Positions 3,143 through 49,136 are shown, counted from the stretch's first letter. The stretch is DNA of 64,000 nt from an uncultured Candidatus Saccharibacteria bacterium (GCA_964467385.1 CAYXQC010000002.1:65625-129624), one strand, 5' to 3'. The notes: generated by a model from the letters alone, not told the origin. Numbers and translations are program-made.

Positions 3143-3457
3143 GTTTCTTTTATTTTATATTATTAAATACAGTTATTATTATTAGTACGGTGGAAAAGTG
3201 TATAACTCTTTAAACTGGCTTAAAATCAAATCGTAATCCGGCTAGCGGGTGTGGATTTAAGGTGGAATTTAAAAGAATAACTTTGTGGATATTCAGATTG
3301 TACACAAAAGAGGTGAATTTATCCTCAAATTATTCTAAAGAAATCCCCGACTTATCCCCAACTGACATAAGGATTTATACACAGTATCCACAGGGTTATC
3401 CACATATGTAGATAAGTCCTTTATGGGTATATAGATGTCTTATATCTTCCCAATGAT
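3143..3457. promoter_or_regulatory. oriC: Probable chromosomal origin (oriC): DnaA-box cluster plus an AT-rich unwinding element in the dnaN-dnaA spacer
   Basis: 9-mers matching TTATCCACA, or within one mismatch, occur at ~3250 (rc), 3284..3292 (rc), 3384..3392 and 3396..3404. Weaker TTATCCTCA and TTATCCCCA copies are also present. A 45-bp stretch at 3143..3190 is >85% AT. The classic dnaA-dnaN context supports the call. Confidence 0.65.
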
Positions 3458-5032: not shown

Positions 5033-5389
5033 ATGAATAGCAAAGAAATTAGCACACTAATTTCACAAGGAAGAGCTTACAATTCAAGCTCTTTTTTGTT
5101 GCGCGTTATGAAAAGTAGTGATGTTGTTAGGTATTTTGGTGAAAAAACAACACAGAACAAAAAAACCAGAGCAGTCTCTTATATAGTATCCAAGAAAATA
5201 TTTAAAACAGCTATTACTCGAAATAAAGCAAAAAGAAGACTTCGAAATGCATTTATGCAGGCTTGTTCTGTGATTGGTGATAATTTTAAAGGATGGAATA
5301 TGGCTTTTAGTGCTAAAAAAGATGTGAATAGTGTGGAATTTTCAGATCTTCTTAATGAAATGAAAGCAACACTTGTGAAGGTGGTCTAA
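5033..5389 (+). CDS. rnpA: Ribonuclease P protein component
   Basis: 118 aa, basic, with RnpA-like motif TRNKAKRRLRNAF, in the rpmH-rnpA-yidC synteny. Confidence 0.7.
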   Translation: MNSKEISTLISQGRAYNSSSFLLRVMKSSDVVRYFGEKTTQNKKTRAVSYIVSKKIFKTAITRNKAKRRLRNAFMQACSVIGDNFKGWNMAFSAKKDVNSVEFSDLLNEMKATLVKVV

Positions 5390-5416: not shown

Positions 5417-6139
5417 ATGTTTCATACACTTTTTTACGATCCAATTTACAACCTGCTTGTTTATGTGATTGATCTTATTCCTGGTGGAGACGTTGGTCTT
5501 GCTACTATTATAGTTACTTGTGTTGTGAAGATTATACTCTTCCCTCTCTCAAAGAAGGCTACCAAGACACAGCTTAAGATGAAACAACTCGAACCCGAGC
5601 TTGCAAAGATTAAAGAACAATATGGAAGTAACCGAGAAGAGTTTGGACGAAAGACACTTGAGTTTTATAGAAAGAATGAACTCAATCCTTTTGCAAGTTT
5701 CTTTCTGATTCTTATTCAGTTGCCAATCATTATTGCACTTGCCTATATTTTTATTAGTGGAGGACTCCCTCTTATTAAAACAGAACTCCTTTACTCGTTT
5801 ATAACTGTTCCGTCTACTGTTTCAACTCTCTTTTTTGGATTAGTTGATGTAAGTAAAACAAGCCTAATTCTTAGTATTCTTGCAGGACTCGCACAGTTTG
5901 TGCAGATTCGATACTCAGTGCCTGCGTATACACCCCCGGCTGAAGGTTCTAAAAATAAAAGCACACTTGGTGATGATTTTGCGCGAAGTATGAATGTGCA
6001 AATGCGGTATGTGATGCCTATCTTTATGTTTGTAGTGTGTCTCACAGTATCAGGTGCGGTTGCGCTTTACTGGATTACTGGAAGTTTGTTTGCTATTGGG
6101 CAGGAGTTGTATTTCAGGAATACAATAAAGAAAGCTTAG
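5417..6139 (+). CDS. yidC: Membrane protein insertase YidC/Oxa1 (short form)
   Basis: 240 aa with multiple TM segments and the conserved YidC core (KKATKTQLKMKQLEPELAKIKEQYG, NPFASFF). Synteny with rnpA supports the call. Confidence 0.85.
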   Translation: MFHTLFYDPIYNLLVYVIDLIPGGDVGLATIIVTCVVKIILFPLSKKATKTQLKMKQLEPELAKIKEQYGSNREEFGRKTLEFYRKNELNPFASFFLILIQLPIIIALAYIFISGGLPLIKTELLYSFITVPSTVSTLFFGLVDVSKTSLILSILAGLAQFVQIRYSVPAYTPPAEGSKNKSTLGDDFARSMNVQMRYVMPIFMFVVCLTVSGAVALYWITGSLFAIGQELYFRNTIKKA

Positions 6140-6167: not shown

Positions 6168-7643
6168 TTATCTAGTGGTAGAACTTGCTACAGAAGATGA
6201 AGCGCGGTTCAAAGTATCAAGCGGGTTTGTCGTGTCTAAAATAACAGGTTCAACAAGTTGAAGTCCCCAGAGTGTGAGGTCAATTTTGTTTGTGAATACA
6301 AGGTAGTCATCAGTTGGGCTAATACTCAAGTTCGTCGCATCGATTACTTGGCCGCTCTCTTTTTGGATAGACATAACAAGTCGAGTTTCACCTGTGTCTA
6401 GATTGATTTTCCAAACTGAATCTGCAAAGTTGATCTGGCCCTGATACCAAATGTCGGGATATGTTCCGAATGCAATGTTGTCAGGAAGCGCACAGTAGAG
6501 TGTGTTTTTTTCTTGCTTTGCCCAAACACATTTTTCAGGAAGTGTTTTGAATGGGAATGTGAAAACTGATCGGCTTTTTGTATCAAGTAGATAAAGTCCA
6601 ATGCTACCCTGTTCACTTTTACTGAATACTACTTTTGTAGTGTCTGGAGAAGTGAGTGTTGTAAGACCGTAAATATTTCCAAGTACTCTTATGACTTCTT
6701 GTGTTGTTGGATTGAGATTGTACAAAAATCCGGGAGCAAAACCTGATGCTTTTGTAGTGAGTGTAATTGTTTTTGCGCTTGGCCATGAAGAAATCCATTC
6801 GCGATATGGTGTGTCGTAAATTCCTACAATAGATCCGCCATCAACTTTTGAAAGAAGACCTCTTGTACCGGTGTTTGAAATTGAAAAGAGTTGTGTTTTG
6901 TCTGGGGAGACAGAAACGCTTGTAAGATCGATTGGTAAATCTTTAAGGTCCAGTGAAGTACTTAACCCTTCAGATGCTTCAGTTGTTGTTGATTTTATAA
7001 TAGAAGCATATCGAGTACTTATCATATCAGAATCCCCTACTAAACCACGTAAAATAAGGTCATTTCCTTGGTTTACAAAAAGTGCCTCATAGATTTTTGG
7101 TTCAGTTTGGTTTGATATTTTTTCTTTGGCCAGTGTATTTGTAGCTGTATCAAAGATGTGGCCAGTACCACGTTCGATGTATCGGATTACTTGTCTATAA
7201 CCAATAATTTTTGGTTTTTTTGTAGGTGCTGTGTTCTTTTTTACAGTTCCATTTGATGTACTTGCAGTAAGGTTTATTGATGAATCTGCAGGCTCTACGT
7301 TTTTTACAACCGGAATTACTTCGTATACAGGGATGGTAATAAAGTCAGATCCAGCTGTTGGAGACTCACTAATCAGTCTAAGTTTTGGAATTTGTGGAGT
7401 TGTTGTAGCTGTTTTTGTTGGTAAATTTAGATCACCATCTGTGCTATTTTGTGAACTTGTGTTCGTGTCGATATCAGGATTGTATCCGCCGAAATTTGTT
7501 CGATTTTTTGCAACGTTTGTAGTTGGAGTGGATGTCTTGTTTTTTGTGTAAAAATAAAAGCCAACAAGTCCACCTATAACAATACTTGTTATTAGAATGA
7601 TAATGATGGCAATTATTCGGTTTCTCGAAGAAGAGTCTCGCAT
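6168..7643 (-). CDS. Membrane-anchored TolB/PD40-like beta-propeller protein (last gene of the T4SS-like operon)
   Basis: An N-terminal TM helix is followed by a Thr-rich linker and repeated SPD(K/T/D)-hydrophobic PD40-like blades (VSVSPDKTQLF, LTSPDTTKVVF, LSISPTDDYLVF). Confidence 0.45.
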   Translation of the reverse strand: MRDSSSRNRIIAIIIILITSIVIGGLVGFYFYTKNKTSTPTTNVAKNRTNFGGYNPDIDTNTSSQNSTDGDLNLPTKTATTTPQIPKLRLISESPTAGSDFITIPVYEVIPVVKNVEPADSSINLTASTSNGTVKKNTAPTKKPKIIGYRQVIRYIERGTGHIFDTATNTLAKEKISNQTEPKIYEALFVNQGNDLILRGLVGDSDMISTRYASIIKSTTTEASEGLSTSLDLKDLPIDLTSVSVSPDKTQLFSISNTGTRGLLSKVDGGSIVGIYDTPYREWISSWPSAKTITLTTKASGFAPGFLYNLNPTTQEVIRVLGNIYGLTTLTSPDTTKVVFSKSEQGSIGLYLLDTKSRSVFTFPFKTLPEKCVWAKQEKNTLYCALPDNIAFGTYPDIWYQGQINFADSVWKINLDTGETRLVMSIQKESGQVIDATNLSISPTDDYLVFTNKIDLTLWGLQLVEPVILDTTNPLDTLNRASSSVASSTTR

Positions 7644-7685
7644 ATGGAGTTTATATGCGTATAGTATAGCAGAAAAAAGTTTTAA

Positions 7686-9155
7686 TTAACGAATGGTTGA
7701 CCAATATGCCGCTAGCCCTTTCCATGTATTACCAACTTTACAGCTAATACATTTATCTTTTAGTAGTTGTCGTTCCATAATTTTGATTCCAACTTCAATA
7801 TTTTTGTATGGATCTTTCAGATCGTTTTCGGAATATCCTCGAGCACGTGCTTCTGCATCCACTTGTGAAAGCTGTAAAAGACCTACGGAGTTGTAGTTAA
7901 GTGGTGCAGGTTCACGAAAAACAAGTCCAGGTTTGAAGTTCGATTCTTTTTTAATAATTCCACCAATAATATTTAACCATCCTCGGAGTGAAACTTGTCC
8001 ATTTGGAAAAAATCTTGCAGCATCGCTTGGTACAATTGAAAGAATTCGAGTCCTGTTTATTTGGTCTGCAGCATACTGCTCCCAGCTTATGTTTGATATA
8101 CCTATTGGTGAGAATGATCCACCTCCTACTATACCCCCGTTAGAATAACCAGGGATACCGTTTGTTGCTCCATTTATAAGATCTTGCGTGTAAGGGTATT
8201 GTTCTGATGGTGTGGGTGTACCCCCTGAAAATTCCACGTCTACTTTTTCAATAGTGCTGTCATATTTTACAGTGTCGATAGCTAGATCACTTCGAAGGAG
8301 GTTCGGATTTACTTGTTGAAGAATAAGATAAGAACCAAGAACAATAAGAAGTCCTTCAATTGCACCCACGATTCTTTTTCTCCCTTCGCTACTTTTACTC
8401 CACGAGTCTGTAGAAACGTACTGGAGACCTCCAACTACTATCATGATTAAAGCGAGTCCTGTTGCGATAGCGATACCTATCTTATAAAGTGTTTGTAGGT
8501 ATCCACTGAGTCCCCCTCCTTTGACATCCACTTCTCCATTCGGAAAAAAAGTTCCGATTGGTGCAAGAAGTTTATATGTACCACCTGCGCCAGGGCTGAA
8601 AGTGATACCTCTTTGGTTTGCACCTACACTATCTGTGAATACTCCTGTTTTTGCTTGCTGTGCTACCTCATCGTGTCCACTAGCAAATACTGCATTGTTT
8701 TCTGCCTGTTTTGTGTCACCTACTGCTGCGTAAGCCTTTGATAGGCTATCTTTGTATTTTGCATCCGCATCCATTAGTTTCCCTAGTCTTTCATTTGTTG
8801 TCCCTTTAAAGCCGAAAACATTACTGATTGTTTCTCCAAATCCGACGCTACTATTCTGTTGTTTTACAAGTGCCCTATCTACACCAGCCTTTAGGACAGC
8901 TTCTTTTTGAGTCTGTGCAACTTCAGTGCTCATACCATTTTTGATTGCAGAATCATATACATTCTGCCCATCACGCGCAGCTTGGCTCATATCACCTGCT
9001 GCTTCAGCGTTAGGTGAAGCATGAGACCTTTGAAAAAAGTCTATTCCAGCATCATAGCTCTCGGCGAAAACTAGACCAAGGGTACTTATTGAGAAAAAAG
9101 AAAACCCAAACAAAAGGTAGATAATTAAAACCGCACTCAAACACTTTTTGAACAT
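7686..9155 (-). CDS. Secreted/membrane-anchored cell-wall hydrolase with a C-terminal lytic transglycosylase (SLT) domain. VirB1/PrgK-like
   Basis: A signal peptide is followed by an internal TM helix (IGIAIATGLALIMIVVGGL). The C-terminus carries ES...GLLQLS...Y SLT-like motifs (KKESNFKPG, VGLLQLSQVD). Confidence 0.55.
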   Translation of the reverse strand: MFKKCLSAVLIIYLLFGFSFFSISTLGLVFAESYDAGIDFFQRSHASPNAEAAGDMSQAARDGQNVYDSAIKNGMSTEVAQTQKEAVLKAGVDRALVKQQNSSVGFGETISNVFGFKGTTNERLGKLMDADAKYKDSLSKAYAAVGDTKQAENNAVFASGHDEVAQQAKTGVFTDSVGANQRGITFSPGAGGTYKLLAPIGTFFPNGEVDVKGGGLSGYLQTLYKIGIAIATGLALIMIVVGGLQYVSTDSWSKSSEGRKRIVGAIEGLLIVLGSYLILQQVNPNLLRSDLAIDTVKYDSTIEKVDVEFSGGTPTPSEQYPYTQDLINGATNGIPGYSNGGIVGGGSFSPIGISNISWEQYAADQINRTRILSIVPSDAARFFPNGQVSLRGWLNIIGGIIKKESNFKPGLVFREPAPLNYNSVGLLQLSQVDAEARARGYSENDLKDPYKNIEVGIKIMERQLLKDKCISCKVGNTWKGLAAYWSTIR

Positions 9156-9179
9156 ACGCTAATTATACACGAATTTTTA

Positions 9180-10358
9180 TTATTGATTTGCTGAATATAC
9201 TAGATTCAGTCCAGAAATTGATTTTTGGAGAATGTGCGTTGGATTTTTTACAATCACTCCAATGCTAACAAGCGCATCTTTAAGTTCTTTTCTTTTGAAT
9301 ACTACAGAATCTTGATAGTCTGGGAGCGCAATTTGGTTGTTGCCAAGTGACCATTCGTATTGCAGGTCGCTCGATCGGCTTGGTGTACTAAAGAAATAAG
9401 GGAAAGCCGAAATCTCCACGTCTCTACCTTTCACTGCATAGTCGTTTCGAAGCGCTTTGTTAAAGATGATTCCGTAGAGTGGATTATTTTCATATAGAAG
9501 TGTTTGTGGGAAAACGTGAGAAATAGTAAATCCATTTAAACCCTTATAATTAGGGTCTTTTGCTGCATATACCTCGGCTTGGATAAGGGTTGGTTTTAGG
9601 AGAATTGAACCTGTGAAATTATAAGAATTTTTACCAAAACCTGAATTGTCACCGTCAACTTCCCTATCAATTTTCCAGTTATAAATAATATTGCTCGAAT
9701 CAACCCTTTTTCCGTTCATTACAATGTTCGGCATTGCGACAAATGTAACATTTGATTCTGGTGTAAAAAGTGCCTTACCTTTGTAAAAAGGTGGTGTATA
9801 TGTATTTGCCTGCCAGAGAATATCAACGTCTACTGGTGCGAATGTGAATGTTTTTACAATATCAGGTGCATTTTTTGGAGAAATAGTTACTCGTACTATA
9901 TTTGTCGTACCAGCTTCTCCTGCTACAAATGAAAATGTTTTCTTCCCAATACCTCGAAGGCTGGTTTTTCCATCAACTGTCCATGTGATAAGTTCTTTGT
10001 TGAGATCGATTCCGTATGTCTCTACAGAAATATCCACAGTTTCTCCAGGTTGTGGAATTTCAGGACTTACTTCTGCATATACTTCTTCTTTGATCTGAGG
10101 TAGTTTTCCAGTGAAAGGGATACTGTTGTCACTGACTGTTCCATCGGCATTGTATATAGGATCACTTGTGTTTGATCCGTTACCATACGCATCTGCTTGT
10201 GCATCGTTGTTATAAAAAACAGGAGTTACTTGAGCGGAAACCACAGGGGATATTGCAACCTGAAGAGATAATAAAGAAAAAATAAATAAAAACACAACCA
10301 CACTTGATATTTTTCTGATATTTTTTTTAGACCAACTAAGCGTTTTCTGCATACTCAA
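9180..10358 (-). CDS. Secreted hypothetical protein (T4SS-like operon)
   Basis: 392 aa with N-terminal signal peptide/TM (ISSVVVFLFIFSLLSLQVAISPVVSAQV). No recognisable catalytic motif. Confidence 0.45.
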   Translation of the reverse strand: MSMQKTLSWSKKNIRKISSVVVFLFIFSLLSLQVAISPVVSAQVTPVFYNNDAQADAYGNGSNTSDPIYNADGTVSDNSIPFTGKLPQIKEEVYAEVSPEIPQPGETVDISVETYGIDLNKELITWTVDGKTSLRGIGKKTFSFVAGEAGTTNIVRVTISPKNAPDIVKTFTFAPVDVDILWQANTYTPPFYKGKALFTPESNVTFVAMPNIVMNGKRVDSSNIIYNWKIDREVDGDNSGFGKNSYNFTGSILLKPTLIQAEVYAAKDPNYKGLNGFTISHVFPQTLLYENNPLYGIIFNKALRNDYAVKGRDVEISAFPYFFSTPSRSSDLQYEWSLGNNQIALPDYQDSVVFKRKELKDALVSIGVIVKNPTHILQKSISGLNLVYSANQ

Positions 10359-10387
10359 TACAGTATATCAAACATTGTGTACAAGCA

Positions 10388-10915
10388 TTATGCGTAAGGT
10401 GTTCCTGAATGAATAATCTTGTTTATTTTAGGGTGTTGTATTAGATAAATCGATCGAGTGTAGAATGGTATGATGTTTATATAAGGTATCATTTCACCAA
10501 AAATAAATTTGAATGCCTTCCAGAATTCAGCATCTGTGACGCCTCGTCTAATACACATAATATAGAGATTAAATACAGCAGCAGGAACTATTATGCAAAA
10601 GTTAATGACCCAGCCAACTATTGGGACAAGACCTACTAGAAACCCTGCAATATCCCAAAATACCGCCATTCCATATACTGCAGTAAAATTTTTACTTTGA
10701 ATATTTGTACTAGACCCATCATTCCCTCGAGACTTATTTATCATCCTCATATTTGGGTTCGGAGACCAGGTTTTTGGTCTTTTTCCAGCACGCAATGCAA
10801 ATTGTTGCTGTTTTTCGGTAATGGTCTGAAGTCTCTCTTCTTCTAGGTAAGTATTTTCACCATCCAGATTTGGTGCTGGCCTAGGATTGTTTGGTCTTAT
10901 AGATAGCGTATCCAT
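10388..10915 (-). CDS. Small two-TM membrane protein (T4SS-like operon)
   Basis: 175 aa with a polar N-terminal half and two C-terminal TM helices (AVFWDIAGFLVGLVPIVGWVINFCIIVPAAVFNLYIM). It lies directly downstream of the VirB4 gene. Confidence 0.45.
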   Translation of the reverse strand: MDTLSIRPNNPRPAPNLDGENTYLEEERLQTITEKQQQFALRAGKRPKTWSPNPNMRMINKSRGNDGSSTNIQSKNFTAVYGMAVFWDIAGFLVGLVPIVGWVINFCIIVPAAVFNLYIMCIRRGVTDAEFWKAFKFIFGEMIPYINIIPFYTRSIYLIQHPKINKIIHSGTPYA

Positions 10916-10933
10916 CGTATCTCTATACTATCA

Positions 10934-12928
10934 TTAATTTCCGTTCGGTCGTGTTTTTGTGAGGCCGGAAGGTGTTACATTTGCTGATGGTGTGCCGATG
11001 TTATTTATACTTATATCGCTAATGCTCACCTTCTCTTCTCCTGTAGCCCCTAGTGCACTATTCATAAAATTTGTGCTGGCACTAATGTTCTGTGAAAACT
11101 CTGTTTCTCCTCCAAGACCTCGATTGGCAAGATCTGCCTTGGCTTTTTTCATATTAATCACTTGTGACGGTGCTGATGTAATGATCTGATCTTCTGTGTA
11201 TGATGCGATTACTTTAATAGCTACATGTTTTAGTCCGGCAAAGAAAATTCCCTCTCCTACATCTGACTCGAGCAAGAGATATTTTTCCTCATCGGTAAGA
11301 TTGAAGGTTTTTTGTACTACGTCGATAGATGACGGTGACTGCTTCAACAAAAGCTGAATAGAAGAGTTTGTGATAATTGGTAAGCCGTATGGTGATTTGA
11401 GGAAGTCCTCAACGTCTTGTGTAATTGTGGCTACACCGAGGTAGTATTTTCGGCCTCGTTTTGCCAAACTGTAGAGGAATGAAGCTGTATCTTCGGATTT
11501 CATCATCCACCATGCCTCGTCGATAACCATAAGTCTTTTTTTCAACTCTTTTCGGATCTGATTCCAGATGAAGTGCATTACGATGTACATCGCTACAGGT
11601 TTCAATTCATCTTCCATGTCTCGAAGTGAGAATACTACGAACTTTTTGTTGATATCAACGTTTGATGGTCTGTTGATGAATCCAGCCCAAGAACCTTTTG
11701 TATATTTTGTAAGTCTCTGTACAAGTGACTCCCCTCCTTCCATACCTGCAAGCACAAGCTCGAAGTCGGACATAAGTGGCGGTTCAACAGCTGCAAAGTT
11801 TGATTCGGGTGTAATATCCTTGAGTGCGTAGGTTTCAGTAATTGCTCGGTCAATAATCGCATCTTCTTCAGGGCTAAGACCTCCGAGCATGATTCGGAAA
11901 AGCCCTACGAGGTTGATGATGTTTGATCGAAGTACATCGGCGTTTGACTCATCTTCTCGTGCTGCTGGGAGATCGAATGGGTTGATATGGTGTTCGGAGC
12001 TGAGGGATATATTGAAAAATCGCCCACCGGTTGTTTCGGCAAGATATTCATATTCTCGTTCAGGGTCGAGTACGATTACGTCAGTATCGAACATCATTGA
12101 ACGCAAGATCTCGAGTTTTGTTGTATATGATTTACCAGAACCTGACTTTGCAAATGTGATTGAGTTGTAGTTTTCAAGTGAGAATCGGTCAAAAAGAATA
12201 AGTGAAGAGTTGTGTCGGTTAATTCCGTACAAAATACCCTTGTCTGATGTGAGGTCGAATGAAATGAATGGAAAAACGCTTGAAAGAGGTGCAGAGTTGA
12301 GCTTTGAGTGAATATTGAGCTGGTCATCTGCGATAGGAAGAACACTCTTATAGCCTTGTTCTTGCTGGAAAAGGGCTGGCTTTAAGTATACAAGGCTGGC
12401 TTCGAGGATTGATTTTACTTCTGACTCGATCTTATCAAGTTCACTTTCATTGTCACCATAGATAGATATGTAAAGTCCTACATCGAAAATCTTTTCCTGT
12501 GCCTGTTGAAGGTTATCTCGTAGTGCTTCAAGGTCTTGGTACGCGGTGTCAAGAACAGGGTCTCGTACAAGTCCCTTTTCTTCTCGAAGGTGAATCTGGC
12601 TCTGCACTTCTGCTACTTTTTTCTGGAATGTTCGAAGTACTGATGCTGTATCGATTGGGTGCACGAAGATGGAAATATCGAAAATCTTGTCGAGGTTGAT
12701 GATTGGGGCAAACCAGCTCGCTGAAAGGAATCGAGGATATGAAATTACAAAGAAAGTTCGGACAAGTTTGTCGCCAAGATTTAGTGCACGAGGGCTAATT
12801 TTGAGCGCAGAAGGGGCAATAATGTCTTGGAGTTCCAAAACACCAGACTGGTAAATCTCCTGCGGCAAAATAGACGCAATCGGGTCAGCCTTCTTTTGTG
12901 TTGGTTTTAAAAAGTCGAAGATTCCCAT
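10934..12928 (-). CDS. virB4: Type IV secretion ATPase VirB4/TrbE/PrgJ family
   Basis: 664 aa. The N-terminal domain matches Gram-positive VirB4 (VRTFFVISYPRFL...DISIFVHPID). Walker A is FAKSGSGKSYTT and Walker B is VIDEAWWMM. Confidence 0.85.
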   Translation of the reverse strand: MGIFDFLKPTQKKADPIASILPQEIYQSGVLELQDIIAPSALKISPRALNLGDKLVRTFFVISYPRFLSASWFAPIINLDKIFDISIFVHPIDTASVLRTFQKKVAEVQSQIHLREEKGLVRDPVLDTAYQDLEALRDNLQQAQEKIFDVGLYISIYGDNESELDKIESEVKSILEASLVYLKPALFQQEQGYKSVLPIADDQLNIHSKLNSAPLSSVFPFISFDLTSDKGILYGINRHNSSLILFDRFSLENYNSITFAKSGSGKSYTTKLEILRSMMFDTDVIVLDPEREYEYLAETTGGRFFNISLSSEHHINPFDLPAAREDESNADVLRSNIINLVGLFRIMLGGLSPEEDAIIDRAITETYALKDITPESNFAAVEPPLMSDFELVLAGMEGGESLVQRLTKYTKGSWAGFINRPSNVDINKKFVVFSLRDMEDELKPVAMYIVMHFIWNQIRKELKKRLMVIDEAWWMMKSEDTASFLYSLAKRGRKYYLGVATITQDVEDFLKSPYGLPIITNSSIQLLLKQSPSSIDVVQKTFNLTDEEKYLLLESDVGEGIFFAGLKHVAIKVIASYTEDQIITSAPSQVINMKKAKADLANRGLGGETEFSQNISASTNFMNSALGATGEEKVSISDISINNIGTPSANVTPSGLTKTRPNGN

Positions 12929-12943
12929 GGTGGTGCGTTATTG

Positions 12944-13591
12944 TTACTGTTGATTAAGGTGAATAGGTTTCTCGATATCGCCTGGATTGAATGTTTTGTA
13001 GAAAAGTTCGATCAATTCTTCTGTTCCTAGGTGAGCGATTCGGATTCCACATCGGACAAGTCCTTGTTCTACCACTTCCATTCGCTGCTGAAGTTGGCTC
13101 TTTGTCTCTTCGAAGGTTGCAGTGTCTTCAGCAGCTTTGGTCTTTTTGTCTTTGTTACCAAGAAAAGTGTTTTTAAGTGCGTTTGTGCCTCCGATAACTG
13201 GCGCTGAGTATGGGATAACAATAAAGAAGCTCTTGGTCATAATGCTTGTTGACTCAGTGAAACTTCGGATGAATTCGATATATTCTCGAGTCTGCATTTT
13301 CATCAAATCCCCTACTTGATCTTTAAGTCGCTCCTCTAAAAGGGCTATGTAAGGTCGTATATCAAGTCTTCGTGACTGTGTATAGATCTGAACTGAGAAG
13401 TTTATTGAGTTTAGAAAATTTTGAAATTGAAAAATGATAGATTGCTGCTCCTCGCCTGATTTGAGGGCGAAGTTCAATGATGATGCAAGAAGAATTGCAC
13501 GAAGTGAACCATCTTTGAGTACAATAACACCGTCTCTAATTTCTTTAATAGGAACAAATGCTTGTGTAGGTCTTGCATCGATGGTCGCCAT
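12944..13591 (-). CDS. Stand-alone VirB4 N-terminal-domain-like protein
   Basis: 215 aa. The N-terminus FVPIKEIRDGVIVLKDGSLRAILLASSLNFALKSGEEQQSII...LNSINFSVQIYTQSRRLD follows the pattern of the VirB4 N-terminal (CagE_TrbE_VirB) domain. No ATPase motifs are present. Confidence 0.5.
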   Translation of the reverse strand: MATIDARPTQAFVPIKEIRDGVIVLKDGSLRAILLASSLNFALKSGEEQQSIIFQFQNFLNSINFSVQIYTQSRRLDIRPYIALLEERLKDQVGDLMKMQTREYIEFIRSFTESTSIMTKSFFIVIPYSAPVIGGTNALKNTFLGNKDKKTKAAEDTATFEETKSQLQQRMEVVEQGLVRCGIRIAHLGTEELIELFYKTFNPGDIEKPIHLNQQ

Positions 13592-13696
13592 AGATGCAAT
13601 TATAGCAGATATTTTTTACACATGCTTTTTCTGTGGGTTGTTTGTGTTTTAAAAATGGAGGCGCACCATATCTTTAGAAAAATTTGAGCGAAAAAT

Positions 13697-14164
13697 CTAA
13701 AAAGGTCTCTGTATTGGCGCATCTTTTCTACTCTCAAGTTTTCCAGATTCACGAGAATAAATAGTTTCGTTGATATCAAGGCTCCATGCGAGATCTTTTA
13801 GATGGCTCTCAGATAGTTTTGGTACGGTCACAGAGGTTTTTGTTAGTTGAAGTGCCTCACTGATACTTTTAGGTGCGATTTTTTTATCAACTTTTTTCCA
13901 AATGTAGAGTTTCTGTGTAAGTGCATAGTTAAAGGCTGACTCGATCATCTCTATAAAAGGACGATTATTTGGTCGATACATAGAAAGAAGACCTGCAAAT
14001 AGTGCACAAGGAATCATAACTATGATCGCCCAGAAAAACGGAAGCATTCGGTACGCAATGAAGCAGAGTCCTGCCCCACCAGCTATGTACACGAACTGTT
14101 TAAACGTAAATGGGCCAAAAATCTTATCTTCTACCTCGATGAATTGTGGAACTTGATAGCGCAT
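13697..14164 (-). CDS. PrgI/VirB3-like small membrane protein
   Basis: 155 aa. A cytoplasmic N-terminus (VPQFIEVEDKIFGPFTFKQFVYIAGG) is followed by a TM hairpin, the typical PrgI/VirB3 architecture. Its position upstream of VirB4 fits. Confidence 0.5.
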   Translation of the reverse strand: MRYQVPQFIEVEDKIFGPFTFKQFVYIAGGAGLCFIAYRMLPFFWAIIVMIPCALFAGLLSMYRPNNRPFIEMIESAFNYALTQKLYIWKKVDKKIAPKSISEALQLTKTSVTVPKLSESHLKDLAWSLDINETIYSRESGKLESRKDAPIQRPF

Positions 14165-14206
14165 CGTTTATTGTGCATTGTGCGCAAGTGTTGCGCGAAA
14201 TTGTGA

Positions 14207-14533
14207 TTATATTGTACCACCCTCTTGAATCATTCGCATATTTTCTTGAATTGGTCGGAGGATTTTTCTGTTTACATCCATGACGAGCTCACCTGCTCTT
14301 GTTGGATCCAATCGGAGTTCCTTCTCTACTTTCTCGAGCATGCTCCCTCCTTCAAAGGTACCAAATACAACCTCGGCAATTATTGATTCTAAAGTAGCAG
14401 CTTGATCAATGTGCAGTTTGTAAACAGTATGAATTTCTTTTAACACCTGATCATAGTTGAATTTTCTAATGGCTTGTTTTGCATCTTCTGGGAGTTTTTC
14501 AAACCCTTCCCTTGATTCTATTGAGTTTGTCAT
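14207..14533 (-). CDS. Hypothetical cytoplasmic protein (T4SS-like operon)
   Basis: 108 aa with no TM and no recognisable motif. Confidence 0.4.
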   Translation of the reverse strand: MTNSIESREGFEKLPEDAKQAIRKFNYDQVLKEIHTVYKLHIDQAATLESIIAEVVFGTFEGGSMLEKVEKELRLDPTRAGELVMDVNRKILRPIQENMRMIQEGGTI

Positions 14534-14571
14534 GGGTATAGTATACAGGAAACTGTGGAAAGCTGGACTAT

Positions 14572-15315
14572 CTAGAGTACTGGTTCTCTGTAAGGATCAG
14601 TTTTTTTAGGTACAAACACCTCTTTTGGAATAGAAGCTGAAGGGGTTGTGAGTTTTGCATCTAGTTTCTGAACTATGTTTTCAGCTGGGTTTGTGTGTGG
14701 TTTGTTTGAGAAACCTATCTCAAGGGCTGGTTTGATCGAGGTGCTGATATTGTTTGTTGTGTTTTGTGCGATGGATGCTGTTGGTGTTGTAGGGTTTTGT
14801 ATGCCCTGTGCTGGTTTATTTCCAGGGATTGTTAGATTTGATGGGGTTGGGTTTTCGATTTCGCTTAGGATGTCGTGGTGAGAGAGTGGTTCGGGGGTGG
14901 TTTTTTCTTGTGCCATGTCAATATCTCTTTTGCTACTGTACGCCGCGTTTGGCTGATCAGGATCCGTTACAGGGTACTGAATTTCTCGAAGTAATTTATC
15001 AGGTAAACAAGTTGAATAAAAACCTTCAATAACAGGATCAGTTTCCTCCTCGTTTAGGTTGAGGGTTTCTATTATCGAACTAATAAAATCTTCTTCAGAT
15101 ATGAGTCCTAGTAAAAACTGTGACGTTTTTCCTCGAATAATATCGATTAACAGTTGTTTGTCTTTTGTATTTGGTCTACATCGATCAATGAAAGCCAAAA
15201 AGTTAATATTTGAATATATTTTTAAGATAAATTCTTGGATGTTTTTTGAGCTCCTCTCTAAGTTTTTTTGGTATATTTGTGTGTCGATGATATTCATTTG
15301 TGTTTTTTGAAACAA
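14572..15315 (-). CDS. Hypothetical protein with a Pro/Thr-rich C-terminal tail (T4SS-like operon)
   Basis: 247 aa: a globular N-terminal half and a low-complexity P/T/N-rich C-terminal half. Confidence 0.4.
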   Translation of the reverse strand: MFQKTQMNIIDTQIYQKNLERSSKNIQEFILKIYSNINFLAFIDRCRPNTKDKQLLIDIIRGKTSQFLLGLISEEDFISSIIETLNLNEEETDPVIEGFYSTCLPDKLLREIQYPVTDPDQPNAAYSSKRDIDMAQEKTTPEPLSHHDILSEIENPTPSNLTIPGNKPAQGIQNPTTPTASIAQNTTNNISTSIKPALEIGFSNKPHTNPAENIVQKLDAKLTTPSASIPKEVFVPKKTDPYREPVL

Positions 15316-15325
15316 GGTCCAGTGG

Positions 15326-17353
15326 CTACTTATCTTTACTTTCAGATCTTTCTATTCTGTCCAATTTATCAACAGTGTCTTCGTAGCCTTTAATTATAGC
15401 CTGCTGATCACTTTTCATTCCACGAAGTGAACTTTCAAGTGAGTTTAATGCATTCATCTCAGCAGCTTGATGCTTAGGATCGAGACCTACCATTCTTTTA
15501 TGAGTGTCAGCGATTTGTTCATCGATTTTGCTTATACGCTCTTGTGCCTTTTCATAGTTTTCTTTTGAGAATTTACCACCGGCAATACCTTTATCTTTAT
15601 TTGCATCCTGAATAAGAGCTTCAAGAGCCTCCTTGTTTTTTGGTGCACTAGATTTTTTCTTGGCTTTTGATAAGGCGGTTTTACTTGCATAGCTAAAAGT
15701 CGTACCTTTCAAATATCTTTTCTCAGCTTCTTTACCCGCAGGACCTTTTAATGCACCCTCAATCAAATTACCTCTCTCTGAGTACATTTTTGTTTTATCT
15801 TTCACTACATCATTAAAGCTTTTATTGTTACCATCTGGTCCAATTTTGAGATCTTTCAGTTTCTTACCTCTCTGCATAAGTGCAGCTGCGCCCAAACCAC
15901 CGAAAGGTAATCTCGCAGCTGCACCTGCCAAAGCTTTATTTTCAGATAAGAATGTACCAAGTCCACCAGCTGTATTTCTGGTTATACTTAAAGCAGCATT
16001 TGCTCCACTGAAAGTCATACCCAGGCTCTTTGCCCAACCTTTCCCTCTTTTTTCCCATTCCTTCGCACCATAAGCTCCAAAACTTGATGCAATTATTAGG
16101 CAACCAAGCATCATGGCAATTAAAATGGCGAATGTCATAACAGCGCCAATCATGTTTGTGCTTCCTGCGAACATGTCTATAAATGTTCCTGTGTATTTCT
16201 TTCCATCGATGGTTACACCACTAAATGTTCCACTTGGGTTTTTTCCAATCATACTAATTACTAGATATAACAAGGCCATGTATGCTGGTGCAAAAAGCAA
16301 ATTATTTTTCAGTTTTGACCACCATTTACCTGACTCGCTACCAACAGCAGGAAGTATGTCACCGAGAACAGCCACAGGTGAAAGGATCATTAAGAAAATA
16401 AGTTCGACTGTGCGCACTAACATCATTAATGCTCCTGCAAAAAAGACAAGCGCGGTGATGAGTACTAGAACAATTCCGCCAATACTTGCAATCAATAGGT
16501 TTGTTGAATTAAGTCCAAGTTTAGAAGCCTCACCTATTCCGAGTGATGATGCACCGCCGTTAGCTGTTTCACCAGCTGCTTGACCTCCGATACTAAAAAT
16601 TTTATCCATTCCTAATGCCTTCGTGAACGCTGCTGATATTCCCGAGTCTAGATCATTTGCATTTGCGCCTCCGGTTGTGTTCTGTGCTACGTTTATTATT
16701 TTGTGATAAAACTGAAGCGCCATAATATTTGAAGCATCGATTGCTACTTGCGTAAAAAACAGACTAAAGTTTATAAGCATCGCTCCTGCTACAACTTTGA
16801 TAAGCTTTTGCTTCGAATTAAAACCTCCATGATTGATTATGATACTGATTCCTATATACAAAATTACAAAAATAAAACAGAGATTGGCAATATCTCGGAA
16901 GGTTGACCAGCCAAGTGCAACGATAGGGATATCGTTCACAACACTTGCCATATTTAAAGAGTAATTGATAACAGCATTGAAAAAGATGGCAGCAACCCAT
17001 AAAACCCAAGAACATAGTCCGAGAATAGAGAAGGTCACTATGGAAATACAAGCAGGAATATCAAAACCCTCGTTCCATTTAAAACATGAGATTTCACTAT
17101 TTGAAGCACTTGCGGTTTGTTGCTGTTGCTGAGAATTAGCTGCATCATTGGGTCCCTTTCCTGCAACGGTTGCCTGTTTTGTAGCGTACGCAGCATTTGA
17201 ATTTGCTGATGCATTAGGATCTCTCGTTCGTGCTTGCCCAGTGGGTGCCGCTGTCTCAGCCTCAACCTTCTCAACAGGAAAAAAACCGCCCGCACAAATC
17301 GCAAAAAGCGTAACAAGAAGAATTATTTTCCGATAAAAATAACTTCCAGTCAT
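15326..17353 (-). CDS. Polytopic membrane protein, VirB6/TrbL-like candidate, with a long Lys-rich coiled-coil cytoplasmic tail
   Basis: 675 aa. A signal peptide is followed by a Gln/Ala/Asn-rich extracytoplasmic segment, at least 6 TM helices and a ~230-aa Lys/Glu-rich C-terminus. It is the large membrane component adjacent to VirB4, as in MPF systems. Confidence 0.5.
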   Translation of the reverse strand: MTGSYFYRKIILLVTLFAICAGGFFPVEKVEAETAAPTGQARTRDPNASANSNAAYATKQATVAGKGPNDAANSQQQQQTASASNSEISCFKWNEGFDIPACISIVTFSILGLCSWVLWVAAIFFNAVINYSLNMASVVNDIPIVALGWSTFRDIANLCFIFVILYIGISIIINHGGFNSKQKLIKVVAGAMLINFSLFFTQVAIDASNIMALQFYHKIINVAQNTTGGANANDLDSGISAAFTKALGMDKIFSIGGQAAGETANGGASSLGIGEASKLGLNSTNLLIASIGGIVLVLITALVFFAGALMMLVRTVELIFLMILSPVAVLGDILPAVGSESGKWWSKLKNNLLFAPAYMALLYLVISMIGKNPSGTFSGVTIDGKKYTGTFIDMFAGSTNMIGAVMTFAILIAMMLGCLIIASSFGAYGAKEWEKRGKGWAKSLGMTFSGANAALSITRNTAGGLGTFLSENKALAGAAARLPFGGLGAAALMQRGKKLKDLKIGPDGNNKSFNDVVKDKTKMYSERGNLIEGALKGPAGKEAEKRYLKGTTFSYASKTALSKAKKKSSAPKNKEALEALIQDANKDKGIAGGKFSKENYEKAQERISKIDEQIADTHKRMVGLDPKHQAAEMNALNSLESSLRGMKSDQQAIIKGYEDTVDKLDRIERSESKDK

Positions 17354-17440
17354 TTATTTTCTAAATTATACACCATGCGCATAATAAATAGCTATATGTT
17401 TCCCACAATTAGCCTTATTTCTTAAAATATTTTTACAATC

Positions 17441-18697
17441 TTATTGTTGTGCCTTTTCGAGTACCGTATTGAGTGCTTTTTTGATAAGAGAGTTTACAAG
17501 TTTTGTGATGATCTGATCAATTTTCTCAGCTGTAACAAGTCTCTGCTTTGGAATATTGAGAGTTTGTTCAAGAGATGACATGATCAAAGAACCTGGAGTA
17601 TATGTTTTACAGCTCCGAGTGTCACCTTTTTTGGCTGCAACATTGTCCTCACATCTTTTGAAGTTTAACCAGCCACTGTTGTTGTTAAGTTCGAATTTGG
17701 CAGTCTCTTGCTTGCCTGTGGCTTGTGCGGCGATGTACTTTCCTGCGTTTAGATATGTTCCCCAAACATTGTTTTGGTTGAATCGTGTGTTGTTCCAATC
17801 GCTCCAAAATCCTGCATTTCCTCCTGTTCCACCTGCCTGTTGCTGTGGTGACATGCTACATGCGATCTGTGCTGCCTGACCGGGATTTCCATACTGACTA
17901 TTGCTATAGGATTCTGATAGAGCTATCGCTACATCGGTCCGGTACTGAGGACACACATTTGAGCCGTTATTGTTGTAGGCGATACCAGAGATATATTGGC
18001 TCTGAATCTTGTCAGCGAGCCCTCTAAAGAAGTTCTCAGGGTTTTCTATGAAGGCAGGGTTACCTTTAAAGCCTGTTTTTGCCCACGCAATAGTTGCATT
18101 TGCTACATATTCGATAATTCCGTTCACGATACAATAGGCAATACCGTTAAAGCTGGCGCCGAAAGGCACACCGAGGATCTGCTGAAAAGCGTTCACTGAA
18201 GTGTCAGCTTCGGTTGCCGCTCTAGTTGAAGCCAAGTTGTCATTTTTGGCCTCTGAAACGATAGGTACATACTTCTGGGATTCGAGAGCTGAGCCTGCGG
18301 CCTTGCTTACGAGGGATTTGAGGCCTGAAGTTAGGGCTTGTCCGAGAAGTCCGCTTGCTGAACATCCGACCGCATCAGATGCAGCAGCTCCGGCTCCACC
18401 CGCTGTGCTACCACTTGACCCTGATGTGTCACTGTTATATGCCTCAGCCTGAGCATCGACTGTGCCTCCGAACCCTGCATTTGCCTGTGCAGCACCTCCT
18501 CCTCCGGCTGATCCTGTTGCAGTTGCTTGAACTTGCGATCCTGCCAGCGCTTGACCTAGAGTCTGTTCTCCTGGTGTTGTACCTGTATATGGAGTGTTTA
18601 CACTAGATGCATAACTAGTTACTGGTATAGAAAAGAGTACAAGAGCACTTACTATTGTAGATGAAATGAGTCTATTTAGATTCGGATAATTTATCAT
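17441..18697 (-). CDS. Secreted Gly/Ala/Ser-rich protein (T4SS-like operon)
   Basis: 418 aa. A signal peptide (IVSALVLFSIPVTSYASS) is followed by a long low-complexity G/A/S stretch and a globular C-terminal domain. Confidence 0.45.
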   Translation of the reverse strand: MINYPNLNRLISSTIVSALVLFSIPVTSYASSVNTPYTGTTPGEQTLGQALAGSQVQATATGSAGGGGAAQANAGFGGTVDAQAEAYNSDTSGSSGSTAGGAGAAASDAVGCSASGLLGQALTSGLKSLVSKAAGSALESQKYVPIVSEAKNDNLASTRAATEADTSVNAFQQILGVPFGASFNGIAYCIVNGIIEYVANATIAWAKTGFKGNPAFIENPENFFRGLADKIQSQYISGIAYNNNGSNVCPQYRTDVAIALSESYSNSQYGNPGQAAQIACSMSPQQQAGGTGGNAGFWSDWNNTRFNQNNVWGTYLNAGKYIAAQATGKQETAKFELNNNSGWLNFKRCEDNVAAKKGDTRSCKTYTPGSLIMSSLEQTLNIPKQRLVTAEKIDQIITKLVNSLIKKALNTVLEKAQQ

Positions 18698-18767
18698 GAT
18701 TACAATTCTCTTTAACTTACTTAACCTTAATTGAAATTTGATTCAAAACACTGGCTGTATCGAATCT

Positions 18768-19742
18768 CTAATTCAAGCTTATGGTTGTCGTTCCTGTTCT
18801 CCAGAAACTACCAGGCTCATTACTGTCGTAGATTATACCATTGTCGATTATGTACTGGTTGATTTGTGTGTATATATCTACTTGGCGAATCACAGCTTCA
18901 CGTACTACTTGTAGCCCGAGGAGTGCTTTCACTGGATCTTTTACTTGTCCACCGATCAAAACAAAGGCGTCAGTCTGTTTTAGGTAGTCATTCGCGAGCT
19001 GTAGGTGCGCTGCCGCAACAGGGCTCGGTACTCGAAGTTGCATTAGACCTTCCCCTATGCGTTTATAGATAGGAATCATTTCGTTTACATCACTTTCGTA
19101 TTTAACAGGATTTGCTCTAAGTGGCGCTGAAGCATCTACGATTACCTTTGCGAATGCATTTCCATAGGCTTTAATCTCGGCTGCGCTTGTTGGTGAAAAT
19201 ATATTCAAGAAAGCCAGGCTGTACTTGTTTTTATTGATATCACTAATATCTAGGTAAGAAAAACTGTTTATAAGGTCATCCTCGTTAAACTCGGTGCCAT
19301 TAATATCGTAATCCAGGTATGTGTTGAAGATATCTTTGCTAAACCGATCACTTACATTGTCTTTAGGGGATGGGTCAAAAGGGTTGGTCGAACTCGCCAA
19401 AACCCCTAAAGTCTGTAGTTTTGCCTGCTGGAGTGCCTCGAGAAGCTTTTGATTTGCTTCTCTTTCCTCTGTGTTTTGTCCAGCAACTGCTTGAATGCCG
19501 GCTATTTCTATGTCGTGAGCTTTTCTAAGTGAGATTTTATTTGTAAGAAGAATTCCGATAACTGCAAGACAAACTGCGCCCACAATAAGAACTCGTTTGT
19601 GGGGAAGAAAGTCTTTACCCTGTGCCTCACTGGTTTGGGTCACTGGCTTTCCTGTAAGCGAAATTTCGTCATACGAGGTTTCTGGTATTCTATTCGAAGA
19701 GGTGCGATTTTTTTGCGAAAAATTTCCAGAAAAGTAAATCAT
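18768..19742 (-). CDS. Bitopic membrane protein (first gene of the T4SS-like operon)
   Basis: 324 aa. A cytoplasmic N-terminus is followed by one TM helix (VLIVGAVCLAVIGILL) and a ~250-aa external domain. Confidence 0.45.
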   Translation of the reverse strand: MIYFSGNFSQKNRTSSNRIPETSYDEISLTGKPVTQTSEAQGKDFLPHKRVLIVGAVCLAVIGILLTNKISLRKAHDIEIAGIQAVAGQNTEEREANQKLLEALQQAKLQTLGVLASSTNPFDPSPKDNVSDRFSKDIFNTYLDYDINGTEFNEDDLINSFSYLDISDINKNKYSLAFLNIFSPTSAAEIKAYGNAFAKVIVDASAPLRANPVKYESDVNEMIPIYKRIGEGLMQLRVPSPVAAAHLQLANDYLKQTDAFVLIGGQVKDPVKALLGLQVVREAVIRQVDIYTQINQYIIDNGIIYDSNEPGSFWRTGTTTISLN

Positions 19743-19784: not shown

Positions 19785-20690
19785 TCATTTGAAGGTGTTG
19801 AGAGTTTTGAAAATAGAAATATACTGCTCCAAAGATAAGTCTTCTGCGCGAACATTTGAATCTAGGTTTTGTTTAATAAAAATTTGTTCCAATCGCATGG
19901 CGTCAATACCCTGAATATTCTTTAAATTTTGTATCAACTTTTTGCGTTTATGTGCAAAGGCATAGTGGAGCATGTCAAAAAAAGCATCCTCATATGCTTG
20001 TTCAATTTTTCTACCATCTATAGTTGCCACTGTTGAATTAAAAATATCAACGGAGATAATTGCCGAATCGACATTTGGCGCAGGAACAAAAGCTCCCCGA
20101 GGAACAATGCTTATGATTTTTGGCACACCATATAATTTAATACTAAGCGACAGTAAATTTTCTTTCATTCTACCTTTCTCATCTTTTGCGACTATACGCT
20201 TTGCTACTTCTTTTTGCACGAGCATAACCACCTTCTTCGGCAGATTTTTTTGAGAAAAAATTGATCTAAAAATCAGACCTGTTATGTAATACGGGATGTT
20301 TGCTATTACTTTATCAAAATTTATAGCAACCTTACTTGATGAATTTTTGAGAATTTCTAAGGCATCAGCGTGAATAAGTTTGAAAATTCCAGCTGTAATG
20401 TCTTGTGCAAATTTTTCACTCAATATCTGAATTAATCTATCATCTTTTTCAATCGCAATAAGTCGAGTATTTTTTCTGGTTCGGACAATATCTAAGAGTC
20501 TCTCGGTAAGTGCACCCATACCAGGTCCAATTTCTAAGATAGTTTCGTTATCACCGATTTCCCCTGATTCTGCCATCTCTCGAAGTGCCTTTTCAGATTT
20601 TAAGAAATTTTGCCCGAGGGATTTTTTTGCAAATTTTGACTCGCGAATCCTCATGTCGCCGTCACGTATATCGTTCAGGTTACTTAGCAT
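19785..20690 (-). CDS. rsmA: 16S rRNA (adenine1518/1519-N6) dimethyltransferase
   Basis: KsgA signature GQNFL plus SAM-binding motif LEIGPGMGALT. Confidence 0.9.
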   Translation of the reverse strand: MLSNLNDIRDGDMRIRESKFAKKSLGQNFLKSEKALREMAESGEIGDNETILEIGPGMGALTERLLDIVRTRKNTRLIAIEKDDRLIQILSEKFAQDITAGIFKLIHADALEILKNSSSKVAINFDKVIANIPYYITGLIFRSIFSQKNLPKKVVMLVQKEVAKRIVAKDEKGRMKENLLSLSIKLYGVPKIISIVPRGAFVPAPNVDSAIISVDIFNSTVATIDGRKIEQAYEDAFFDMLHYAFAHKRKKLIQNLKNIQGIDAMRLEQIFIKQNLDSNVRAEDLSLEQYISIFKTLNTFK

Positions 20691-22773: not shown

Positions 22774-23019
22774 TTATCGCTTAAGAGGATGAAATTTCTA
22801 TAAAGATTTTCTAAATTTAGCTAGAAATATGTACTATTTTACATTTTTTGGCACTCATTGTGTGTTTTTTGGACCTATTGACCCTTCGCCGAGGGTCTTT
22901 TACAATTATCTATTATTGCTAAAAAAGTCCATATTCCGCGTCTTTCGACGCTCGCAGTAGGTACTCTCCTCACCTGTGCGCTCATTAAAGCCTTTATTCC
23001 ATCGGTTTCTTCAGCGGAT

Positions 23020-46155: not shown

Positions 46156-46224
46156 TCGGCGTTGATAGATTTTGCTTGGCACTTGAGTTGCGCAAAGATC
46201 TGGTAAAATTTTTAGAATATTTTT

Positions 46225-47439: not shown

Positions 47440-47447
47440 TATTATTT

Positions 47448-47969: not shown

Positions 47970-47980
47970 AAACTATCGTT

Positions 47981-48508: not shown

Positions 48509-48523
48509 GAGCACATCATAGAT

Positions 48524-49105: not shown

Positions 49106-49136
49106 ACAAATTGTAGTTTTACATTTGTTACAATAG

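Follow-up and report, generated by a model that had tools for sequence, protein, structure and literature searches.

A chromosomal, origin-proximal type IV secretion system locus, probably of the Patescibacteria clade, with a split VirB4 and a conserved family of soluble, DPYRE-tailed proteins

Twelve genes at positions 6168-19742 of a 64,000-nucleotide stretch of DNA (GCA_964467385.1 CAYXQC010000002.1:65625-129624, deposited under an uncultured Candidatus Saccharibacteria bacterium; the whole stretch is referred to as the window) probably constitute a vertically inherited chromosomal type IV secretion system (T4SS) of the Patescibacteria clade, in the Paceibacteria arrangement and derived from monoderm conjugation machinery of the MPF-FATA CD1110 type. 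A large fraction of bacterial diversity falls within the Patescibacteria, which live in attachment to host cells, and in Saccharibacteria their chromosomal T4SS became the first such system proven essential to the bacterium carrying it. Analysis of the window established gene identities, a split VirB4, a fusion of a pilin with an SLT domain, two predicted folds, strict synteny and a pattern of conservation; the locus displays a Paceibacteria machine with a rigid gene order, a motor more conserved than DnaA, and fast-evolving surface proteins. An earlier note, made from the sequence alone, had described twelve co-directional minus-strand genes at this position as a T4SS-like operon, and the layout was borne out by the map of open reading frames (ORFs): the twelve ORFs, numbered g1 to g12 in order of transcription, are tightly packed on the minus strand with spacers of 10-105 nt.

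The cytoplasmic motor of the predicted system is encoded by two genes. The larger, g8 (10934..12928, minus strand; 664 residues), comprises the remaining part of a VirB4 N-domain followed by the RecA-like ATPase domain. It matched the NCBIfam model 'VirB4-like conjugal transfer ATPase, CD1110 family' with 367 bits (cut-off 325) over model positions 179-733, as well as the Pfam families P-loop_TraG (4e-27) and AAA_10. The closest solved structure was the C-domain of Thermoanaerobacter VirB4 (4ag5, 1.7e-40), with TrwK following at 1e-5, and the Walker A (AKSGSGKS, residues 260-267) and Walker B (LMVIDE, residues 466-471) motifs were both intact. The earlier note had staked its VirB4 assignment on agreement with VirB4 profiles, and the CD1110-family match above cut-off upholds the assignment. 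Upstream of g8 by 15 nt, g7 (12944..13591, minus strand; 215 residues) encodes a TrsD-like protein, a detached N-terminal segment of VirB4, which matched the NCBIfam TrsD model (3e-6) and several VirB4 models over their N-termini. A hidden Markov model (HMM) of the g7 family aligned to residues 22-188, and that of the g8 family to residues 211-759, of the same 797-residue VirB4 of pCDC3875. Because g7 and g8 map to complementary parts of one full-length VirB4, the VirB4 of this locus is, judged by profile alignment, split into a TrsD-like N-terminal piece and an ATPase. The two genes stand as separate ORFs in 78 related loci, and a TrsD/VirB4 pairing has been reported for Patescibacteria (PMC12102498). 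The 'full VirB4' that the earlier note had placed at 10934..12928 is therefore a VirB4 ATPase with Walker A and B motifs, as claimed, and not a full-length protein, since its N-terminal part is encoded by g7. The C-terminal 60-80 residues of g8 (10934-11170) form a low-complexity tail rich in Ser, Asn, Thr and Gly that is absent from most orthologs; ortholog lengths range from 578 to 678 residues and their alignments end near residue 600.

Directly upstream of the motor genes, g6 (13697..14164, minus strand; 155 residues) encodes a transmembrane (TM)-hairpin protein of the PrgI/VirB3 type, a description that had been given previously and that is confirmed by a match to PF12666 (PrgI) at 5.6e-10 and 40.1 bits, above the cut-off of 27. 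Probable membership in the Patescibacteria clade was read from proxies for g8, whose identity to VirB4 proteins from at least 80 genomes of Patescibacteria species was 76-92%. It was at most 36% identical to plasmid VirB4s, all of them monoderm (the best plasmid matches, at 28-36% identity, came from Firmicutes and Actinobacteria), and its best curated model was that of the MPF-FATA CD1110 family.

Synteny and identity were compared across loci chosen by VirB4 similarity (L001-L080), which represent at least 80 Patescibacteria species-level metagenome-assembled genomes (MAGs) among 486 relatives. The order uvrD-ksgA-g1...g12-yidC-dnaA-dnaN was repeated in dozens of species-level genomes, labeled as Paceibacterota, Parcubacteria, Taylorbacteria, Campbellbacteria and Zambryskibacteria, with many labeled as Saccharibacteria. 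Median identities in these VirB4-selected loci were 81% for VirB4, 62% for TrsD and 51% for PrgI, compared with 58% for DnaA, 54% for UvrD and 47% for DnaN, while g1, g2, g3, g10, g11 and g12 were merely 25-37% identical. With VirB4 at 81%, DnaA at 58% and the exposed proteins at 25-37%, the pattern fits a conserved motor coupled to a diversifying host interface, as far as sequence identities can indicate.

The cluster lies beside the probable chromosomal origin. Downstream of g12 and on the opposite strand are yidC (5417-6139) and rnpA (5033-5389), beyond which lie dnaA (3458-4792) and the adjoining dnaN (2036-3142). The spacer between dnaA and dnaN holds a cluster of eight DnaA boxes with 0-1 mismatch (3284-3415), which is likely to be oriC; given this clustering, oriC would lie approximately 2.8 kb from the end of g12. 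The origin-proximal position claimed in the earlier note is thereby supported. Upstream of g1 the same-strand run continues through ksgA (19785-20690) and uvrD (20719-22773). The GC content of the cluster (0.38-0.42) resembles that of the rest of the window, and its base composition gives no sign of an island.

When the substantial ORFs of the 64 kb were all scanned against Pfam, no VirD4/TraG coupling protein, relaxase or other conjugation protein emerged, in line with the earlier report that neither a VirD4/TraG protein nor a relaxase is present in the window, and no oriT-type feature was found in the 64 kb. The sole tyrosine recombinase of the window (28657-29634) lies approximately 9 kb from the cluster among housekeeping genes and has a Xer-type architecture (SAM_1 plus Phage_integrase); the statement that no integrase adjoins the cluster thus holds for adjacency, with the qualification that a Xer-type recombinase is encoded at this distance. 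A relaxase, a coupling protein and an integrase or att borders flanking the mating-pair formation (MPF) genes, which together would mark a conjugative element, were not found within the window. The combination of relaxase, VirD4 and integrase on the flanks, which the earlier note had named as the sign of an integrated conjugative element, was looked for throughout the 64 kb and is absent. The lack of VirD4 and relaxase in the 64 kb, the base composition, the shared flanks and the conservation of VirB4 all agree with the view of a domesticated chromosomal T4SS-like apparatus rather than a conjugative element. The proposed kinship with Saccharibacteria VirB4/VirB6 loci that are essential for epibiotic life also agrees with the literature (PMC12102498, PMC10633639).

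Between the VirB6-like gene and PrgI the locus encodes two related soluble proteins. The larger, g4 (14572..15315, minus strand; 247 residues), combines a divergent helical N-domain with a disordered region rich in Pro and Thr and an IENP motif, and ends in DPYREPVL-COOH, and g5 (14207..14533, minus strand; 108 residues) is an acidic protein consisting of a single N-domain of the family, approximately 100 residues long and bearing the LHIDQ motif. An HMM of the g5 family matched g4 at 2.6e-9. Both had been counted among secreted or membrane proteins in the earlier note, which sequence analysis contradicts: they are predicted to be soluble and cytoplasmic, and a TM-like segment occurred in just 1 of 150 listed members of the family. 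Members of this DPYRE-tail family share a plan of one to three helical domains of approximately 100 residues (LHIDQ), a disordered region and a DPY[RH]E..E-COOH end, the last present in 129 of 141 long proteins among the members listed. The family comprises 786 representative clusters in a library of 1.84 billion proteins and has no counterpart in Pfam or NCBIfam; unannotated until now, it is a new detail beyond the known system. Each of the 62 C-terminal motifs present in the 80 loci chosen by VirB4 lay on the virB4 strand, and 61 were 1-2.5 kb upstream of virB4. An independent test of synteny used the DPYRE family rather than VirB4 as the query against metagenome contigs and yielded 58 loci (L082-L139), in which the module was again accompanied by its housekeeping neighbors. 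PrgI, TrsD and VirB4 directly followed the DPYRE gene in every locus with at least 2 kb of downstream sequence (34/34), and the triple-Ig protein, pilin and propeller then followed in that order wherever at least 7 kb was available (22/22). The VirB6-like protein, g2 and g1 were found upstream wherever room permitted.

The pilin component of the locus was recognized within g11 (7686..9155, minus strand; 489 residues), which comprises a signal peptide, an N-domain of approximately 190 residues, a TM hairpin, a linker and an SLT domain. The earlier note had described this protein as a cell-wall hydrolase with an internal TM segment and a C-terminal SLT domain. The SLT lytic transglycosylase domain was confirmed (residues 393-484, 6e-9) with its ES (catalytic) and GLLQLS motifs kept, and the internal TM segment was re-identified as the hairpin of a VirB2-like T4SS pilin (residues ~205-295). 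Although g11 itself scored 17.1 bits against PF18895 (T4SS_pilin), under the cut-off of 26.6, the model was matched by 26 of 28 orthologs (best 2.1e-9) and the hairpin aligned throughout. By this alignment the internal TM segments are a VirB2-like pilin hairpin, for which pilus formation is at most predicted. Across 63 loci the hairpin was the sole conserved part of the protein. An SLT domain was present in the window and in one further locus (L014) as a fusion and in another (L002) as a separate ORF, while other genomes carried a different C-terminal extension or none, a distribution that identifies the SLT domain as a lineage-specific addition. In many pilin orthologs a Cys-rich domain with the motif ITGGTE...H...G..D...HWHV replaces SLT, occupying the C-terminal 120-150 residues in L063, L064, L065, L072, L073 and L013, with variants in L034, L036 and L044. 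The motif resembles the LAS metallopeptidase signature; PDB and Pfam searches were unsupportive, and a LAS/M15-type peptidase is retained as a tentative lead. Such comparisons suggest that the pilin hairpin serves as a base on which C-terminal domains can be exchanged.

The candidate channel subunit is g3 (15326..17353, minus strand), a polytopic membrane protein of 675 residues with approximately seven TM segments and a hydrophilic, Lys/Glu-rich tail of 250 residues. The protein of the window had no Pfam or NCBIfam match, and among its orthologs 3 of 26 touched TrbL/VirB6 (best 1.6e-4) and 4 of 26 touched NF046089, the CD3337/EF1877 mobilome membrane protein (1.1e-6). Its placement relative to PrgI and VirB4 agrees with that in pCDC3875 and in Southlakia. 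A VirB6-type channel subunit is the best, though weak, reading of g3 in view of these minority matches and the gene position, and is considered probable. Of the earlier description as a VirB6/TrbL-like protein, the polytopic nature stood, and a family match was absent for g3 itself and weak in few orthologs. PDB profile searches with ortholog alignments of g1, g2, g3, g10 and g12 returned nothing significant. Both g10 and g12 were considered as the missing VirB8 (NTF2 fold) and ruled out, their predicted models being a triple Ig and a beta-propeller; g1 shares the bitopic topology of VirB8, but its profile found nothing in the PDB.

The remaining proteins of the cluster are predicted to be membrane-embedded or exposed at the cell surface. 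The conserved module opens with g1 (18768..19742, minus strand), a bitopic protein of 324 residues with a cytoplasmic N-terminal tail, a TM segment at residues 52-70 and an extracellular domain of approximately 250 residues. It had no match in Pfam, NCBIfam or the PDB, and its family is kept at the same position across L001-L080 and in 17 of the 18 metagenome loci that extend far enough upstream. Directly upstream of g3, g2 (17441..18697, minus strand) encodes a secreted protein of 418 residues that carries a signal peptide; one region is of low complexity and rich in Ala, Gly and Ser, and residues ~180-418 form a conserved core that contains Cys. It had no PDB match, and a homolog search with the core recovered 25 close relatives, all unannotated. 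Some orthologs append F5/8-type-C (discoidin) or Ig-like domains, and DUF4141 was matched by 1 of 29; g2 is a candidate surface or tip adhesin. The small polytopic membrane protein g9 (10388..10915, minus strand; 175 residues) matched no family and is a positional ortholog only, being variable in sequence and missing from some genomes. An N-terminal signal or anchor helix, a disordered linker and three tandem Ig/FN3-like domains make up g10 (9180..10358, minus strand; 392 residues), which in its structural model is a triple Ig-like (beta-sandwich) surface protein. The last gene, g12 (6168..7643, minus strand; 491 residues), encodes a TM helix at the N-terminus, a disordered linker rich in Thr and Ser and, outside the cell, a domain modeled as a beta-propeller; as predicted, it is a membrane-anchored seven-bladed propeller with conserved Cys and Trp residues. 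The TolB-like propeller of the earlier note has thus been retained as a seven-bladed beta-propeller, with no specific TolB/PD40 similarity. The annotations of g10 and g12 are new details beyond the published description of the locus.

Signals for gene expression were surveyed across the window. None of 52 genes checked had a Shine-Dalgarno-like sequence before the start codon, while an exact TATAAT box, often TGnTATAAT, ended 6-11 nt before the start codon of nine genes and at other distances in three. Examples lie upstream of 19742 (g1), 17353 (g3), 13591 (g7), 9155 (g11), 4792 (dnaA), 35665 and 51053. Within the cluster, leaderless promoters are predicted for g1, g3, g5, g7, g10 and g11. The lack of Shine-Dalgarno sequences together with -10 boxes hugging the start codons suggests that leaderless mRNAs are widespread across the window and that several genes within the T4SS 'operon' may have their own promoter. 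Scans for sigma-70 promoters (-35/-10) and intrinsic terminators did not rise above chance, leaving transcription units undefined by these means.

The gene content is consistent with the following model, in which we infer the assembly of the proteins into one machine, the nature and direction of its cargo, and the roles of g1, g2, g4, g5, g9, g10 and g12. A split VirB4 composed of the TrsD-like piece (g7) and the ATPase (g8) would act as the cytoplasmic motor, docking at the membrane via PrgI/VirB3 (g6) and the VirB6-like g3. It would drive the assembly of, and transport through, a conduit made from the VirB2-like pilin domain of g11, whose SLT domain would open the peptidoglycan locally. The fast-evolving exposed proteins g2 (adhesin-like), g10, g12, g1 and g9 may form the wall-spanning, host-contacting part, and the DPYRE-tailed g4 and g5 may serve as an adaptor or substrate on the cytoplasmic side. 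Such a machine would most likely mediate contact-dependent exchange with a host cell, by protein export and/or pilus-mediated attachment, and not conjugation.

Several points weigh against this model and the origin proposed for the locus. VirD4-like genes have been reported elsewhere in most Patescibacteria genomes (PMC12102498). The VirB6 label of g3 derives from weak matches in a minority of orthologs and from position, and a VirB8-like (NTF2) component was not found in the cluster, neither g10 nor g12 having that fold. VirB4 identity is somewhat inflated relative to the other genes, the loci being VirB4-selected. Several genes of the cluster have their own -10 box near the ATG, so that transcription as one unit is only presumed, and the functional data (essentiality) come only from Southlakia, a saccharibacterium.

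Three other explanations were weighed and are less well supported than a monoderm T4SS for exchange with the host. It is very unlikely that the locus is a conjugation or mobilization apparatus whose coupling protein and relaxase are encoded elsewhere on the chromosome. Descent from conjugative MPF-FATA systems and the occurrence of VirD4-like genes in 2,918 Patescibacteria genomes, mostly far from virB4, would suit such a function, but relaxases are present in just 103 of 3,035 genomes, and in Southlakia the t4cp homologue is non-essential whereas the T4SS is essential (PMC12102498). Further arguments against conjugation are that the cluster keeps its place among housekeeping genes from species to species, that VirB4 is conserved to an extreme degree and that a relaxase, a type IV coupling protein (T4CP) and an oriT-type feature are absent from the 64 kb. 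An import machine that takes up host DNA as a source of nucleotides, comparable to H. pylori ComB or archaeal Ced, is unlikely, even though T4SS-based import requires no relaxase, Patescibacteria are reported to lack nucleotide synthesis (PMC10633639) and g8 weakly matches models of the DNA-import ATPases CedB (2.6e-9) and CedD (5.5e-4). These matches are far weaker than that to the CD1110 VirB4, and for uptake a route of its own is already encoded in the window. Genes for type IV pili at 44356-50963 (the set at 44356-49105) include a PilB-like T2SSE protein, a PilC-like T2SSF protein and three further ORFs, two of which matched the prepilin N-methylation motif, along with a 608-residue protein with a below-threshold match to the DUF5649 repeat; ComEC is encoded at 57005-58645 and RecJ nearby at 54373-56103. 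With type IV pilus genes and ComEC both present, a route for DNA uptake and adhesion independent of the T4SS is indicated. In Southlakia, moreover, loss of comEC, which is dispensable, abolishes competence and not viability, whereas the T4SS is essential (PMC12857230).

Quite unlikely, too, is a pilus-biogenesis or adhesion organelle without cargo, in which VirB4 merely extracts and polymerizes the VirB2-like pilin for attachment. The conserved VirB6-like protein and the soluble DPYRE family beside the motor suggest handling on the cytoplasmic side, and adhesion is already provided for by the type IV pili that the window encodes. The idea draws on the pilin hairpin as the one conserved element of g11, on an accessory set dominated by adhesin-type domains (Ig, discoidin, propeller), on the absence from the window of a T4CP, the usual recruiter of substrates, and on the finding that in Paceibacterales enrichments T4SS pilins rank near the top of the unknown genes by expression (PMC10936435); it overlaps with the host-exchange model rather than opposing it.

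A further, tentative reading, regarded as doubtful though less so than the three alternatives above, is that the Paceibacteria T4SS represents a distinct structural subtype with a fixed ten-gene core, a DPYRE family in place of the coupling protein and swappable C-terminal domains on the pilin. The core order would be g1, g2, VirB6-like, DPYRE, PrgI, TrsD, VirB4, triple-Ig, pilin and propeller, with five families undescribed. In such a subtype the DPYRE family could be an adaptor or substrate that docks on the split VirB4, standing in for the coupling protein, and the pilin may be a membrane anchor with swapped C-terminal domains, of which SLT is the sole identified one.

Additional features of the window and its relatives were recorded. 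Many MAGs titled 'uncultured Candidatus Saccharibacteria bacterium' (L006, L010, L011 and others) carry a VirB4 approximately 80% identical to g8 in Paceibacteria-type synteny. Given this VirB4 and synteny and the published finding that VirB4 is almost unshared between Patescibacteria classes (PMC12102498), the Saccharibacteria titles of those related MAGs are probably taxonomic mislabels. A second cluster of DnaA boxes lies at 58602-58759, far from dnaA, with four boxes of which three are perfect (TTATCCACA); positioned at and just beyond the 3' end of comEC and before a sod gene, it may serve as a promoter under DnaA control or as a site of titration. Approximately 3.3 kb upstream of the T4SS cluster and on the opposite strand, a cell-wall hydrolase with LysM and Peptidase_M23 domains is encoded at 23020-24033 (plus strand); Southlakia cannot do without the peptidase and lysozyme homologues that lie near its virB4 (PMC12102498). 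A minus-strand ORF of 149 residues (22875-23324) overlaps this gene, has no family match and is probably spurious. A scan of the window against Rfam yielded four tRNAs and nothing else.

The locus was compared with known systems. Bordetella Ptl, Brucella VirB, H. pylori ComB and archaeal Ced are likewise T4SSs that operate without a VirD4-type coupling protein or without a relaxase; the first three, however, belong to diderms and possess an outer-membrane core, Ced comes from archaea, and none has a sequence relationship to the locus beyond VirB4. The staphylococcal plasmid pGO1 (TrsD/TrsE) shares a small, separate homologue of the VirB4 N-terminus encoded next to VirB4, but is conjugative and carries both a relaxase and a T4CP. 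Clostridium botulinum pCDC3875, of the CD1110-type MPF-FATA, has one of the closest plasmid VirB4s, 32% identical to that of the window, and the core order VirB6-PrgI-x-VirB4-x-SLT. It differs in an adjacent VirD4 (CD1115 family), MOBP relaxase typing, a single full-length VirB4 of 797 residues and the lack of a VirB2-like pilin. When family HMMs and hhalign were applied to the pCDC3875 proteins, VirB4 alone was matched, with a marginal PrgI match by hhalign (E 0.021); the family HMMs of g1, g2, g3, g5, g6, g10, g11 and g12 found no match.

Similarity was also observed to the homologous T4SS cluster of Southlakia epibionticum (SEML1_0006-0019), on which its growth as an epibiont depends (Wang et al. 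2023, PMC10633639). Both clusters are origin-proximal on the minus strand, follow the order VirB6-like, PrgI, TrsD-like, VirB4, encode PF18895 pilins and have no recognizable relaxase or T4CP within the cluster. In Southlakia there are two VirB6-like proteins, both giant, an NTF2-like (VirB8-like) protein is present and the pilins form an array of six. In the window one pilin is encoded and is fused to SLT, and the triple-Ig protein, the beta-propeller, g1, g2 and the DPYRE proteins are further features by which the two clusters differ.

The closest correspondence is with the Patescibacteria-clade T4SS described by Quinonero-Coronel et al. (2025, PMC12102498). In that work VirB4 was found in 2,417 of 3,035 Patescibacteria genomes as a monophyletic clade nested in MPF-FATA; TrsD, PrgI, VirB6, VirB1 and VirB2-like pilins occur near virB4, the tie between VirB1 and virB4 being specific to Paceibacteria; there are hardly any relaxases, and most T4CPs are unlinked; and dnaA, dnaN, ksgA and rnpA are the typical neighbors of virB4 in Paceibacteria (PMC12102498). 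The window shares the probable MPF-FATA ancestry of VirB4, the TrsD, PrgI, VirB6-like, VirB1 and VirB2-like pilin components beside virB4, the absence of a nearby relaxase or T4CP, and the dnaA, dnaN, ksgA and rnpA neighborhood. Nothing essential differs, and Fig. 6 of that paper leaves other neighbor genes gray. Since clade, repertoire and neighborhood are already published, the locus is not a new system and is probably an instance of the known Patescibacteria-clade T4SS in its Paceibacteria arrangement. What is added here is the characterization of g10, g12, the DPYRE family, the pilin-SLT fusion and the conserved ten-gene order. These increments, accessory annotations and the DPYRE family, are modest, and the locus is real and typical of a known system of biological importance; its surface proteins and DPYRE family offer specific candidates for a part in host recognition and for the role of substrate or adaptor.

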